From assembly GCF_006345805.1 (NCBI RefSeq), contig NC_043026.1, forward strand, positions 868,001 through 932,000: 64,000 bases of DNA, in the 5' to 3' direction. The position numbers and the translations under genes are program-made. Positions 2,747 to 59,539 of the stretch are shown here, piece after piece (positions within the stretch are counted from its first letter, which is position 1; each line of letters starts with the position of its first letter). The notes beneath the pieces are model-generated. The model had not been told where the DNA came from, did not search any database, and worked only from the letters and a program-made list of their open reading frames with translations. The stretch is from Octopus sinensis. Lineage: Eukaryota.

Positions 2747-3249
2747 CACTGAGGAAATGACCAGAGACCGAGACCTTTGGAAGTATGCCGTGTGTGGGAA
2801 ATCCCGGCAGGACAAGTGAGACCATAACCTGTGGCCTCTACCTGGGACGTAGCCAGCCCACTTATGCATAACTTTCCTTCTTGTGACACAAACCCTACTT
2901 GTGAAGACCTGTTGAGGCAAGTGAAAATTGAAATCGATCAACCGGTGGCACAAGAGAACCGTCCGAACGTGGCCATTGCCAGTGCCGCCCCGACTGGCCC
3001 CAGTGCTGGTGGCACATAAAAAGCACCATCCGATCGTGACCGTTTGCCAGCCTCGTCTGGCACCTGTGCAGGTAGCACTTAAAAAGCACCCACTACACTC
3101 ATGGAGTGGTTGGCGTTAGGAAGGGCATCCAGCTGTAGAAACACTGCCAGATCAGACTGGGCCTGGCGCAGCTACTGTCTCCCCAGACCCCAGTTGAACC
3201 GTCCAACCCATGCTAGCATGGAAAACGGACGTTAAACGATGATGATGAT
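2747..3249 (+). mobile_element. RTE 3' end / RTE-tailed SINE ending in (GAT)n
   Basis: Starts with the RTE ORF terminus (TEEMTRDRDLWKYAV), shares the body seen at 4430-5555, ends GGACGTTAAACGATGATG. Confidence 0.8.
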
Positions 3250-3319
3250 ATATATATGCTTTTGGTGTGAATGGTTTCTTTACATGGTACCGTGATTTAC
3301 AATCCTGTAAATAATAATA

Positions 3320-3548
3320 ATGGTATTTTTATATAAGCTTAAAGCTAATGGTGATCACCATGCAATGAATAAGGAAAATAGTTTAATAATGGGGCATATA
3401 AGTCCTCAACAGAAAAAAGAAGGCTTTCCTATCCGTGTGAGAAGCCTTCTTTTTCTGTCGAGGGCTTATATGCCTCTTTATTAGACAATTTTTTCTTAGT
3501 CACTGCATGGTGATCACCATAAGCTTTAAGCTTGTGTAAAAATACCAT
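3320..3548. repeat. Long inverted repeat (fold-back), ~105-bp arms
   Basis: ATGGTATTTTTATATAAGCTTAAAGC...AGAAGGCTT pairs with AAGCCTTCT...GCTTTAAGCTTGTGTAAAAATACCAT; loop about 12-14 nt. Confidence 0.9.
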
Positions 3549-3551
3549 ATA

Positions 3552-3842
3552 TCATCATCATCATCGTTTAACGTCTGCTTTCCATGCTGGCATGGGTTGG
3601 AGTATTTGACTGAGGACTGGCGAACCAGATGGCTGCACCAAGCTCCAATCTGATCCAGCAGAGTTTCTACAGCTGGATACTCTTCCTAACGCCAACCACT
3701 CTCAGAGTGTAGTGGGTGCTTTTATGTGCCACCGGCATGAGGGCCAGTCAGGCGGTACTGGCAACGATCTCACTCAAATGGTGTTTTTACGTGCCATCTG
3801 TACAGGAGCCAGTCCAGCAGCACTGGCAATGACCTCACTCAA
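3552..3842 (-). mobile_element. RTE-tailed SINE copy
   Basis: CATCATCATCGTTTAACGTCTGCTTTCCATGCTGGCATGGGTTGG is the reverse complement of the family tail. Confidence 0.8.
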
Positions 3843-17008: not shown

Positions 17009-17036
17009 CATACATACATACATGTATACACATAAA

Positions 17037-17293
17037 TATTTATAATAATATAAAATACAGCTATAATGAAGGGCACAGAGATTTCTATGCCTATATGCTG
17101 AAGATAGATGCTAAGTCCATCTAACCACTTCAAAATATCACTTTATAATTTACATGTATTATAATATATAATTATAATTATGATTATAAAGTGATATTTT
17201 GAAGTGGTTAGATGGACTTAGCATCTATCTTCAGCAAATAGGCATAGAAATTTGTGTCCTTAATTATAACTGTATTTTATATTATTATGAATA
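17037..17293. repeat. Long inverted repeat, ~110-bp arms, AT-rich spacer
   Basis: TGCTGAAGATAGATGCTAAGTCCATCTAACCACTTCAAAATATCACTTTATAAT pairs perfectly with its reverse complement at about 17184-17237; outer arms have a few mismatches. Confidence 0.92.
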
Positions 17294-17446
17294 TATATAT
17301 ATATTTATAATAATAATATAGTAATAATAATAATATATATATAATATATATATAAAGGGACAGTTTACGAAAAAAACCAAAGACGAAGACAGGTGGTGTA
17401 CAAAACAAACAGATGTATTAGTATAACGCTGAGGAATAGAAAAAAT

Positions 17447-33732: not shown

Positions 33733-33779
<47 letters not shown>

Positions 33780-33783
<4 letters not shown>

Positions 33784-33868
33784 TACTTTATATAATTAGG
33801 GTTCAGCAAAAACATTTGCCTGAATGTTTGCTGAATGTTTTGCTGAACCCTAATTAATAAAGTAATGT
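33780..33868. repeat. Short fold-back of a Penelope-like end
   Basis: ACATTACTTTA..TAATTAGGGTTCAGCAAAA pairs with TTTTGCTGAACCCTAATTA.TAAAGTAATGT. Confidence 0.8.
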
Positions 33869-34081
33869 TTAATATACAGTAAATGGTCCCTTTACATACT
33901 GAACACTGGTTTGGTAAAATTATTATTACTAATTAATTAATTTTACCTTGATTATTATTGACTATATATATAATATAATATATATATATAATATATATAT
34001 ATGTATATATATGATTTTTTACGTAATGAGATAAAAAAAAAACCAAGGCTGTATAGATATTAGAGCATTTATAGATAGAAG

Positions 34082-34435: not shown

Positions 34436-34678
34436 TATACACATATAAAGGGTGAAATATAATTAATTTAATAAAATCGATAAATTTCACCTAGTAGTCT
34501 TTCGGTATGGAAAGGACCATATTCGGTAAAAATTATAGGTTACAAATACTGTTGTTTGTGGAGACTTATTTTTGTAGTAATAGTAATAGTAGCCCATTTG
34601 ACTGCTATTTCTAATATTTTCGGTATGTGATTTAAGCAACTTGTTGCAAAAAACCCTTTATTATAATTATATATACAT

Positions 34679-34726
<48 letters not shown>

Positions 34727-34734
34727 ATGTATAT

Positions 34735-34892
34735 ACAGATTCAGGTGATATGGTACTTAAGTAGGCAACCAGATTTTAGTACGGTATTATCCATACAATT
34801 TGAAAGTAAGGTGATTAAAATCAAAATAAGCAACAGGATATCCCGAGGTAATGCATTACCCCTGGATATCCTTGTTGCTTATTTTGATTATA
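34735..34892 (-). mobile_element. Penelope-like end with terminal palindrome (34819-34889)
   Basis: Homologous to 44030-44148; palindrome apex GGTAATG|CATTACC. Confidence 0.7.
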
Positions 34893-35072
34893 GATATATT
34901 TAAAAAAAACAGACAGATAGAGAAAATCTATCTAAGAAAGGAACTCTATCTCTCTTAAAAAATATCTTTTGATAAGCATAAGAAATGCGCAACCGGTAAA
35001 AAGAACTTTCACCTAATTAAATACACTCTCCCTTACTTAAATTATTTTGTCAGCATTTTCTTCATTTCCTTT

Positions 35073-36536: not shown

Positions 36537-37689
36537 TGTGGTACACGACCAGACCAACTTATGACTTGTCGGTTGGAATGGAACTCGGTCATAAGTCAAG
36601 GGGAAGGTGTATAACAAACTATGTTGAACAGAAGATCCTAAAACAATATATGTATACTGTTTATATTAGCTGGTTCATTGCTCTTGTTTTGACTGTTGCA
36701 TTGCTTTCACTGTCTTTTGATTGTTGTAACCTCTAGCGTTCTTCATGCGTCTTGTTTTCATCTTGGTTGTTGAATCAAAGTTCCGATGCAACAACCAAGT
36801 TTGACATAAGACACCTGTAAGAAGACTGAAGCAAAAAACAGCCAAAAGATTGTGAAATCAACACTAAAGATCAGGACACCATTCTAACTAATATAAACTA
36901 TGTACGTAGTAGTGGGGCTCTGAAAGGGATCTCAGGGAGTAGCGTCCCTGCCTTCCTGGGCTAGTTTTCCACCACAATTCTTAAAAATTATGGTAGAGGC
37001 CTTGGTCTCAGGACTGCTCATGTCTAGAAACTGAAGTTGGGGATAAGCAAGGGAATGAACCCCTTGGAAAATACAGCTCCAAAAAAGCCTCATGATAGCA
37101 AAGGAGAATGGGCACCAGCCAGCCCAAAGGTTGGGGTGGGCTACACCTGCTTACCTCGGTTGCTATGGCATTTGAGGTAGATCCAGCCACCCCCGTTAAC
37201 AGGGACAAAACCTGGGTTTAAAACACTGGATGATGATGATGATGTACAAAGTATAAATTCCTTGTCTCACAAATGTAGGTTTTCGTAAAACAATTTACTT
37301 CACATCAACATAAGTGACATGCATGCCACACTTACAGACCACTGATTAAATCAAGAAAAATACAAAAAAAAAAAACGAAAATGAACGATAGTATTCAAGG
37401 GGCACAGTTTGTTATTGCAGTAAATTCCAGTCCTCAAAATCCCTGTCACTAAATGGGAAATTACCACCAAACCTCCAGGCATATATACAATACCTCAAGA
37501 ACATAATCATAACAGCTGTCTGAAGCACTAGCTTTCCAACTTAGCTCAGACAAGCATAAAAATATATATACACAGAGAATGTGGTCAACGCCGGTGTCAG
37601 GTGTATAGCACCTGTGCTGGTGGCACATAAAAAGCACCTTTCGAGGGTTGGGCCTCACAGAAGCAATGACAATGACAAATAACTATGCT

Positions 37690-44004: not shown

Positions 44005-44250
44005 ATTGTATAAGTTCAGCAAAAATTTAGATTCAAATGAATATGGTACTTAATTTAGATGCACCAGAATTTTGAATGATGTTATCCATAAAAATCCATG
44101 GGGTGATTATAATCAAAATAAGCAACAAGGGTGACTCCGGTAATTTGGTACGATCGTTTCGTACTACATCATTTTATTAAATGTTGTAATTATTACAACA
44201 GATTTAAGATGCTGGGAACTCATCAGCCAATTATAGAGGTTTTCCATTAT
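44005..44250 (-). mobile_element. Penelope-like fragment in a (TA)n tract carrying a hammerhead
   Basis: TA-flanked and homologous to 34735-34855. Confidence 0.7.
44141..44233 (-). ncRNA. Type I hammerhead ribozyme with complete core and extended stem II
   Basis: TAA TTGG CTGATGA GTTC..CATC TTAAAT cTGTTGTAAT a ATTACAACA TTTAA..GATG..GTAC GAAA CGA TCG TA CCAA a TTA. All core nucleotides present; predicted cleavage between 44149 and 44148. Confidence 0.85.
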
Positions 44251-44490: not shown

Positions 44491-45695
44491 TCATCATCAT
44501 CATCATCATCATCATTTAGCGTCCGTTTTCCATGCTAGCATGGTTGGACGGTTCAACTGGGGTCTGGGAGCCCGAAGGCTGCACCAGGCCAGTCATCTGG
44601 CAGTGTTTCTACAGCTGGATGCCCTTCCTAACGCCAACCACTCCGAGAGTGTAGTGGGTGATTTTATGTGCCACCGACACAGGTGCCAGACGAGGCTGGC
44701 GAAGGCCACGCTCGGATGGGGTTTTTATGTGCCACCGACACAGGTGCCAGACGAGGCTGGCAGACGGCCACGCTCGGATGGTGTTTTTATGTGCCACCGA
44801 CACCAGGTGCCAGATGAGGCTGGCGGACGGCCACGATCGGATGGTGTTTGTTACGTCCCCAAAGCACGGAGGCCAGTCTATGCGGTACTGGCTACGGCCA
44901 CGTTCGGATGATTTTCTTGTGTGCCACCGGACTGGTACCACAAATAATACAAATTCCATTGATGTTCATCTATTTTGATTTGTTTTGATTTGATTTGATT
45001 TTCACTTGCCTCAACAGGTCTTCAAAGTGTCACAAGAAGGAAGGTATGCACAGGTGGACTGACTACGTCCCAGTAGGGCCACGGTTATGGCCTGACTAGT
45101 CTTGCCGGGTCTTCGATGGTGTTTTTATGTGCCACCGACCAGGTGCCAGATGAGGCTGGCGAACGGCCACGATCGATGGTGTTTGTTGCGTGCCCACAGC
45201 ACGGAGGCCAGTCGACGCGGTACTGGCTACGGCCACGTTCGGATGGTTTTCTGTGTGCCACCGGCACTGGTACCACAAAGATACAAATTCCATTGATGTT
45301 CATCTATTTTGATCTGATTTGATTTGATTTTCACTTGCCTCAACAGGTCTTCAAGGTCTTCACAAGTGTCACAAGAAGGAAGGAAGGTATGCACAGGTGG
45401 ACTGACTACGTCCCAAGTAGGGGCCACGGGTTATGGCCTGATATTCTTGCCGGTCTTCGGTTGGTGTTTTTATGTGCCACCGACACAGGTGCCAGATGAG
45501 GCTGGCGGACGGCCACGATCGGATGGTGTTTGTTATGTGCCCACATCACAGAGGCCAGTCGATGCTGTACTGGCTACGGCCACGTTCGGATGGTTTTCTT
45601 GTGTGCCACCGGTACTGGTACCACAAAGATACAAATTCCATTGATGTTCATCTATTTTGATTTGGTTTGATTTGATTTGATTTGATTTTGATTTT
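44491..45695 (-). mobile_element. RTE-tailed SINE/3' UTR with ~350-bp tandem triplication
   Basis: ATACAAATTCCATTGATGTTCATCTATTTTGAT recurs at about 44947, 45281 and 45629. Confidence 0.85.
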
Positions 45696-52395: not shown

Positions 52396-53669
52396 ATATA
52401 TTAAACATTATTTTCAAATGGAGTACACTTTCCAAGGAGAAAAAAACAATTAGCATTTTGCTACAAGTCCTTCAAGACTTTTAGCCAATCACGCTTTGCA
52501 ATGCAATAAAAGAAGGTTAATTTTGATTGGAAATTCTTTGAGAAGACCAAATATGAGTAATTAGCTAGTCTTTCTAATCACAATAATCAAGCTACAGAAT
52601 ATTATTGTGTTGGAGGAATTTTTTGAAAGACATACATTTCCCAATTAAAAGAATGTTTTTTAACTTGGGAAATACCTGTTCTGGCATTGTTATTCTACTT
52701 GTCACTGCCTCCATGTGGCCCATCCTTCGAACAGTGCTTTGTACATGTCACCAGCATGGGTGAAAGTTGTGCAACACTGGCATTGGCCACAATTATGATG
52801 TCACTTGGCTTGACAGGTCTTCCCATGCATGGCATATCACTCAACATTCAACAAATGCGTTTTACGTGCCACAACTACAAGAGCCATCAGCAGCTTGATG
52901 GTACCACTTGGTAGAAACGTTAGCACGCCGGGCGAAATGCGTAGCCGTATTTCGTCTGTCGTTACGTTGTGAGTTCAAATTCCGCCAAGGTCGACTTTGC
53001 CTTTCATCCTTTCGGGGTCGATAAATTAAGTACCAGTTACGCACTGGGGTCGATGTAATCGACTTAATACCTATGTCTGTCCTTGTTTGTCCCCTCTGTG
53101 TTTAGCCCCTTGTGGGTAATAAAGAAATAGGTACCACTTGTCAGTGGGAAAAGATAGACCCTTTAGGTTCAGCCTGACACTGTTTTGAATCCCAATATGG
53201 GTCTACCACTGTTTTGATAACTATCTGCCATTTGTGAGAACAGGAATGGTTTGAGAGTCATTCAATTGGCAAGTCTAGCAAAAAGGCCTATCCAGTAGAA
53301 GTTTCACTGAATTAATAGATGGCGCAGAGTTTGAAAGCCAGCTTTCCTGAAGACTTTGGAACTCAAGACATGTTGCCATCCTTTGATGTTCATCATAGCT
53401 CTAAGATGTCGCCTGATGAGGCACTGAGCCTTTTGATTTGTGTTTTGTAAAGTGTCCTTGTGCCCGCGTGGTGCAGAAACGTTGAGGTGATGATGCAAAC
53501 AGGCATACGATTCCTAAATTAACGAGGTTTTTGTAGCCAGGTGTAAATGTCGGATTTAGAAAAAAAGTTGCCAACCTTGTCGTTAGATAAGTTCGGGACC
53601 AATGGAAGAAAGTGGGTTTGGTCAGCATTGGGAGAACAACATCCTCTTGTGTTGTTGACTAGCCTTTAG

Positions 53670-57625: not shown

Positions 57626-57902
57626 TAGTTAACTATTTAATCAATTATTAATTGATTGTTTGGTTAATCAGTCGATCAATCAGTTGACTACTTAGGTTTA
57701 TCAGAGACCTTTCAATGCCATTTCTGACCTCATCAATCACATCTCCTCTCTGACCAGAAGCAGAACTAGAGTAGATAGGGTGTGTCATTGATGAGTCAGA
57801 AATGGCAACAAAGGGACTTTGACAAACCTAGTTGATTGATTGATTGATTGACCGAATAATTAATCCAACAATTGATTAGTTACTTAGCTAGATGGTTAAC
57901 TA
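57626..57902. repeat. Long imperfect inverted repeat
   Basis: TGCCATTTCTGACCTCATCAAT pairs with ATTGATGAGTCAGAAATGGCA, and TAGGTTTATCAGAG pairs with CTTTGACAAACCTA. Confidence 0.85.
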
Positions 57903-58530: not shown

Positions 58531-59539
58531 TCGGAACCATGTGGTTGGTGAGCAAGCTACTTACCACACAGCCACTCATATATATATATATATATAAACA
58601 AATAAATAAATAACTAAAGAGTCATACAACTGAAACCAAATGAATAATGAATTAGTTGAATGACAATATCTGTTTTTCCTGATGAAGGTGTTGTCAATGA
58701 AGTCGTGAAATATTAAGTTTTATCGCCATGGATATAACCAATAGTGAAATATTGAAAAATAGCCACGCAGTATATTTAAGTACAAGTGTATCTTGCATCT
58801 ATTAATATGTGTGCATGTGGTGGAAGAAGACTGGTGCATAATCGTGATAACCAAGAGCATCTGGATTTGATCCGGGCGACCTTTGGCAATATGCAGGGCT
58901 TGAGTAAAAGACCCATCAAGTCAAGTGAAATCGTAGATGTGGGAGATATTGGTGTTGCGTAACCGGCACCCATGCCAGTGGCATGCAAAAGGCATTTTTC
59001 AAGCATTGGGCATCACAGAGGCAATGTGACTGATGCCAGTGTTCATGGGACTCAAACTCACATCTCTTGTACGCAGGACAGATGTTCTACCACTGGACCA
59101 AAGTAAGAAACGCTAGCACGCCGGGCGAAATTCTTAGCGGTATTTCGTCTGCCGTTACGTTCTGAGTTCAAATTCCGCCAAGGTCGACTTTGCCTTTCAT
59201 CTTTTCGGGGTCGATTAAATAAGTACCAGTTACACACTGGAGTCGATATAATGGACTTAATCCCTTTGTCTGTCCTTGTTTGTCCTCTCTGTGTTTAGCC
59301 CCTTGTGGGTAGTAAAGAAATAGGTTTTAGAGACTTTCGGCACAAGGGCCAGTCAGACGGTTCTGACAACTACCTTTTGAGCGTGGTCGTTGCCAGAACC
59401 ACCTGACTGGCCCTCGTGCTGGTGGCACGTAAAAGCACTCACTACACTCTCGGAGTGGGTATGATATGAGAAGTTTTCCACTATTATTCCTAGAAGATTA
59501 AGCAACCATATAAACAGGCTCACTACTTGAGCTTGCCGT

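Follow-up and report, generated by a model that had tools for sequence, protein, structure and literature searches.

The question raised by this locus is how an inverted repeat with no spacer came to have its apex beside the predicted cleavage site of a self-cleaving ribozyme. The window, a 64,000-nt stretch of Octopus sinensis DNA (NC_043026.1, positions 868,001 to 932,000 of the forward strand), contains a 39-bp palindrome whose arms pair in 35 of 39 columns (89.7%, E 6e-9) and meet at 34853/34854 in seven perfect base pairs, GGTAATG|CATTACC. The initial annotation had described about 35 bp mirrored at this point, and our alignment confirmed it. It also proposed that the template was a ribozyme-cleaved RNA and that the cDNA, having reached the cut end, folded back to prime its own second strand. 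The features of the locus and of a second copy in the window are given in Table 1.

Table 1. Features of the palindrome and of the second family copy in the window (positions of the window; distances are from the predicted ribozyme cut).
Feature	Position	Strand	Basis
(TA)n-rich left target	34670-34736	.	sequence
Long arm: Penelope-like element (PLE) 3' end, 5'-truncated 3 nt before the predicted ribozyme cut	34737-34853	-	91-93% full-length identity to 39 other best-scoring loci
Long arm, tail; left end at -123	~34737-34815		
Long arm, terminal-repeat part	34816-34853		
Native self-complementary TGCA at the junction, common to both arms	34852-34855	.	sequence and family read-through sequence
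Short inverted arm, tail-less, ending at the family's fixed internal end (-42)	34854-34892	+	arm pairing; partner-end distribution
Short TA-rich right flank	34893-34900	.	sequence
Divergent subfamily B copy: tail, terminal repeat, whole predicted ribozyme; truncated into (TA)n, non-inverted	44010-44249	-	alignment and motif
Predicted type I hammerhead	44149-44229	-	motif scan; stem I covariation, three subfamilies, 95 copies
Stem I 5' strand	44229-44227		
CTGATGA	44226-44220		
Long stem II			
GAAAC	44160-44156		
Loop GATC			
GTA	44151-44149		

The homology between the two copies, annotated as 34735-34855 against 44030-44148, was confirmed with a shifted start: positions 34737-34835 and 44029-44127 share 75.7% identity (E 9e-13), with a local score of 110, where 500 shuffles reached at most 62. 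The second copy runs up to the predicted hammerhead cut as had been claimed, the cut falling at 44149/44148, immediately after GGTAATTTGG on the + strand. The two copies belong to different subfamilies, and the cut site of the palindrome's own subfamily (A1) reads GGTAATGCAG|TACGATCG. When positions are counted from the cut, negative on the 3' product and positive upstream, the apex lies at -3, on a native TGCA spanning -4..-1. The apex had been placed at the equivalent of the cut itself; it lies near the cut, 3 nt short of it, because loci of its own subfamily read GGTAATGCAG|TACGATCG and 28 of 29 others, as well as L030, continue past the apex position as CAGTA or CAATA. Native A1 sequence is retained up to 1 nt from the predicted cut, which on the left arm would fall one base beyond the junction TGCA (34856/34857).

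The palindrome is a member of a large repeat family. A search of the species' own genome (2.7 Gb) returned 1657 candidates, of which 40 were scored and had 91-93% identity. Family copies lie in (TA)n, are 5'-truncated and in many cases are inverted head to head, and their outer ends are fixed, the tail end at -125 to -145 and the internal end at -37 to -42. Three subfamilies were distinguished: A1 with the palindrome, A2, and B with the copy at 44030. The window locus, like 14 of the 15 junction loci L031-L045, has a tail on one arm, the other arm stopping at about -23 to -42, the arrangement of an inverted pseudo-LTR (pLTR) with a one-sided tail, and 43 inverted copies were found in a tail-anchored sample described below. 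One head-to-head copy (L189/L190) had a tail on both arms, and at L238 tail pieces lay back to back. The flanks of the window locus and its siblings are (TA)n and other simple repeats, which mask any target-site duplication. The window palindrome is a head-to-head remnant of a Penelope-type retrotransposon, an architecture already known for PLEs; alone, the locus is ordinary, and its value sits in the family statistics.

Longer copies outside the window locus link the ribozyme to coding sequence. In L258, the ribozyme is followed contiguously by about 1.2 kb of AT-rich non-coding DNA and then by a decayed region with zinc-finger-like and GIY-YIG endonuclease sequence. In a relative, L270 (73% identity to L258 over a 75-aa match), an open frame of 428 aa includes a YVDD motif. 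This frame matched PF01541 (E 1.5e-6), Pfam gave no reverse transcriptase (RT) match on the partial frame, and the best named homologue was an RT-domain-containing protein of Octopus vulgaris (60%). The endonuclease of L258 and L270 is that expected of an EN+ PLE. Inspection of L270 and L272 revealed the CCHH motif, defined for EN+ PLEs in PMC8557442, with two cysteines between GIY and YIG (VYSIRC..AC..YIGE, then two histidine motifs). The zinc-finger-like CX2-5CxxC motif common to Neptune and Nematis lies upstream of the C-terminal endonuclease, as CTNRNCMLC in L258 and CTNDNCMVC in L270. The family is a PLE with a C-terminal endonuclease and is of Neptune type, a term that denotes resemblance. 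The stretch just upstream of the ribozyme was considered as the C-terminus of the endonuclease and rejected, being non-coding, with the ORF 1.2-1.5 kb further. In L256 (786-3042) and L257, the long AT-rich non-coding stretch was internally duplicated or inverted, and another repeat was nested there.

The family carries a type I hammerhead with predicted self-cleavage at GTA. A core of CUGANGA, GAAA and NUH with a short palindromic helix III was present in 95 distinct copies, although its conservation is not independent evidence because these copies were chosen by a strict core pattern. Base pairing outside the core was more informative. Pair I.2 was A-T in A1 (52 of 60 copies), G-T in A2 (20/25) and G-C in B (3/3), and pair I.3 was C-G in A1 (58/60) versus T-A in A2 (19/25) and B (3/3). 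Since stem I covaries between subfamilies among the 95 core-retaining copies, the position of the predicted cut is fixed. Helices I and II are both supported by these comparisons, pairs II.3 and II.4 being retained, and the helix III loop was GATC in 43 of 60 A1 copies. The unconstrained minimum-energy fold differed from the hammerhead in the examples, by 0.7-7.7 kcal/mol, and an Rfam scan of the window gave no hammerhead among the best 150 of 237 matches, only miRNA matches to simple repeats. Separate copies (L136, L155, L307, L148, L327 and L355) had recurrent deletions of 4-8 nt in the helix III region.

Further structures lie elsewhere in the window. A hammerhead-like motif on the + strand at 53413-53490 (CTGATGA, a GGCAC...GTGC stem, GAAAC and a possible stem I) lacks a valid cleavage triplet and may derive from the ribozyme of a different family that has since decayed. 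At 3311-3558 lies an imperfect palindrome of 250 bp (82%) whose arms are separated by a short spacer; it is the source of a sub-threshold MIR5048 match in Rfam and is nested in 2971-3834, where further inverted arms pair at 79%; the whole is possibly a MITE or another inverted insertion. Other imperfect palindromes (69-88%) lie at 17026-17304, 33771-33876, 36701-36861, 57626-57890 and 59340-59419, and several tandem copies of a unit of about 55-60 nt follow an (ATC)n run within 44500-45200.

The distribution of arm ends around the predicted cut was determined from a sample anchored on the tail, and so not chosen on the breakpoint. The pattern had 671 matches; the first 100 listed gave 96 arms, or 95 once a near-duplicate was dropped. 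Three ends first placed at +3 proved to be TG|CA palindromes and were moved to -1; two arms with internal deletions were scored as reading through. Arm ends numbered 21 in 1541 nt at risk in -21..0, compared with 13 in 5717 nt in +1..+110 and 16 in 6129 nt in -91..-22, making this 22-nt hotspot 3' of the cut 6.0 and 5.2 times denser than the two flanking regions (scan-corrected p 2e-4). Few ends fell across stems III and II (three in +1..+22, none in +23..+44). Of 79 arms that reached -21, 58 passed the ribozyme, and cleavage is therefore a minority route. When arms were instead anchored at -41 (1654 matches), the first 100 rows yielded 97 distinct arms, with both arms counted at some loci; 24 ended in -16..+2 and 2 in +3..+21.

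Breaks were then counted at base level around the cut. Among 2610 A1 anchor matches, 89 rows fitted a pattern for arms with a break in -5..+8; by design, the pattern does not capture perfect TG|CA palindromes or roughly half of the remaining breaks. Removal of 3 duplicates left 86 rows, and setting aside 12 internal deletions or insertions left 74 breaks. The cut itself (position 0) was the highest single base, with 15 of the 74 breaks (corrected p 0.003), and 43 breaks fell in -4..0 against 26 in +1..+8 (p 5e-5). Four of the rows at -2 lack independence, being the partners of arms in cut-site junctions. Another 15 of the 74 clustered at -5/-4, at the foot of stem I, and could reflect RT pausing. 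In A2, which like B lacks the TGCA, 15 of 27 breaks counted by hand did not extend past the cut (p 0.13; one deletion set aside), and the subfamily B break pattern gave no matches. The breakpoint excess likely records in the genome that the ribozyme cuts in living cells, and template cleavage, taken alone, appears quite probable. The histogram foreseen in the initial annotation, a sharp peak within a few nucleotides of the cut, was obtained in part, as a five- to sixfold peak 3' of the cut, with most arms reading on through the ribozyme. Its cleaved template is supported for the family, given the peak at or just 3' of the cut, the recurrence in separate sub-lineages and the drop upstream, but as a minority route. 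No account of PLE truncation or inversion points piling up at a hammerhead cut was found in the mostly open-access literature consulted, including the accessible portions of PMC6431247 and bioRxiv 10.64898/2026.07.22.740005.

Exact palindromes were concentrated on particular words. Genome-wide, 22 of 30 loci had a zero-spacer TG|CA apex as in the window; four had a CAG spacer, with one arm ending exactly at the cut, in three the spacer was 8 nt long with GTAC or a variant at its centre, and one was of another kind. As controls, the stronger 8-bp palindrome ACGATCGT at +2..+9, just upstream of the cut, was used four times among 7 loci (the anchor for this word includes a CpG and is longer by one base), and a matched AATGCA upstream at +38 was used at 0 of 6. 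The largest palindrome class was that of GGATATCC at -17 (apex GGAT|ATCC), with 23 of 50 among the loci listed and 67 in all, its anchor being shared with A2 and spanning more subfamilies. These counts indicate that palindromic words attract joins, mainly on the 3' side of the cut. Loci with TG|CA were scattered over sub-lineages, with 8 changes on the tree and a single clade in 0% of bootstrap trees, although the tree (11 palindromic rows among 69, 120 columns) has low resolution and its comparison set lacks the A1b sub-lineage, which inflates clustering. Amplification of one palindromic master was rejected on the basis of the 8 changes and the absence of shared unique flanks.

We narrowly favor an origin of the palindrome as a PLE insertion, likely from hammerhead-cut RNA, in which two cDNAs were joined by microhomology of their TGCA tips. 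The element protein would nick both target strands and prime reverse transcription at two start sites; for the green anole element in vitro, both strands were nicked and extended, and the two RT start sites match the tail ends observed here (PMC11167929). On cut RNA, each cDNA would run off and terminate in TGCAG. Trimming of one base would allow the two TGCA tips to anneal, and fill-in would then give a zero-spacer palindrome, with palindromes centred on GGATATCC arising from deeper trimming. About one-fifth of tailed arms would come from cut RNA and the majority from uncut RNA.

Snap-back would leave the same cleavage footprint: the run-off cDNA would fold and self-prime synthesis of its complement, and the short arm would be what remains once the endonuclease has opened the hairpin at about -41. 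PMC3846280 proposes self-priming as the source of palindromes at PLE junctions, but with an antisense template; PMC8557442 calls the way in which inverted pLTRs form undefined. Among the 43 inverted copies, 14 were symmetric within 10 nt, about three times the 4.7 obtained by shuffling, and 10 of these were in the hotspot, which speaks for fold-back. The short arm reached further 5' in 19 copies and the tailed arm in 10, and in five the arms had no overlap. Because fold-back cannot give partner sequence absent from the tailed cDNA, the 19 are not fold-back products, yet they share the same short-arm end; partner 3' ends lay at -43 to -35 in 30 of the 43. Later central deletion could mimic some asymmetric junctions, but three of 10 inverted arms ending exactly at the cut (L159, L162 and L350) had partners with upstream sequence, as did 6 of 18 hotspot arms (p 0.02). 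A terminal TGCA forms four intermolecular pairs (-4.2 kcal/mol) versus 0 bp in a hairpin with a 4-nt loop, so snap-back there needs non-templated bases; GGATATCC can form a 2-bp hairpin. Both arms were of the same subfamily in 40 of 42 pairs, which also suits snap-back, and no clear two-subfamily chimaera was found among the 42 (one was borderline), so the use of two RNAs is not proven. The self-priming of the initial annotation is therefore not the reading we favor.

Two further explanations were weighed. If RT stalled on the folded ribozyme at the foot of stem I, without cleavage, and the first native palindromes beyond the internal start site attracted the joins, the -5/-4 cluster, the commonness of the GGATATCC apex, the many read-through arms and the weak A2 signal would all be expected. 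Hammerheads of PLEs cut poorly in vitro (PMC4209133). Stalling is at odds with a top base at the cut itself, at the far end of the stem I 3' strand, with the scarcity of ends over stems III and II, and with the use of the stronger palindrome 8 nt upstream only 4 times versus 22. A longer inverted insertion may instead have lost its centre by deletion and stopped on TGCA by chance. Long palindromes are unstable at their centre, and 12 of 86 rows from the family show internal deletions, but deletion gives no reason to favor the ribozyme cut or to leave the matched upstream TGCA unused. Given the joins, their conflict with fold-back, the pairing of TGCA, the symmetric excess and the lack of chimaeras, joining of two cDNAs is marginally the probable origin, snap-back is unlikely, pausing without cleavage still less likely, and central deletion improbable.

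The family-wide footprint provides genomic evidence on PLE hammerhead cutting in vivo, for which PMC4209133 states that evidence is absent, and on inverted pLTR formation, and the family yields precise predictions for the existing in vitro PLE system. It is an evenly balanced possibility that the fossil copies, which number in the thousands, form a base-resolution in vivo record of self-cleavage by a metazoan PLE hammerhead, with the cut halting synthesis outright, so that about one-fifth of insertions become short, two-cDNA, head-to-head palindromes, sometimes from one cut and one uncut RNA. If so, the activity of the ribozymes and the integration cycle of PLEs could generally be read from junction histograms, whatever the genome.

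The 5' ends of R2-type elements coincide with the cut of their HDV-like ribozymes. As in R2 and other non-LTR elements of this kind, which are named in PMC4209133, a self-cleaving RNA would set the cDNA run-off point in the octopus family, although the ribozyme and the element class differ and about 145 nt separate the cut from the 3' end, giving short abortive inserts. As in LINE-1 twin priming (PMC11702581), a second cDNA would be primed internally on the opposite strand of the target and joined head to head by microhomology. In the octopus family this second start lies at a fixed position, overlaps of tens to hundreds of bases between the arms are frequent, and the ribozyme would set one stop. 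The EN+ PLEs of the available passages of PMC8557442 and PMC3846280 have the same head-to-head, 5'-truncated terminal repeat with a one-sided tail, microsatellite target, junction palindrome and hammerhead in the terminal repeat. Their tails are 30-40 nt versus about 85-105 nt in the octopus family, which also differs in its 1.2-1.5 kb of AT-rich non-coding DNA between ORF and ribozyme, and junction position is related to the ribozyme cut here and not in those passages. The green anole Poseidon element behaves similarly in vitro: its tail lies between two 3' ends at fixed positions, its target is AT-rich, both strands are nicked and extended, and RNA that has not been cut serves as the principal template; its cleavage was dispensable and no reads ended at the hammerhead site (PMC11167929), whereas about one-fifth of the octopus tailed arms stop at or just before it.
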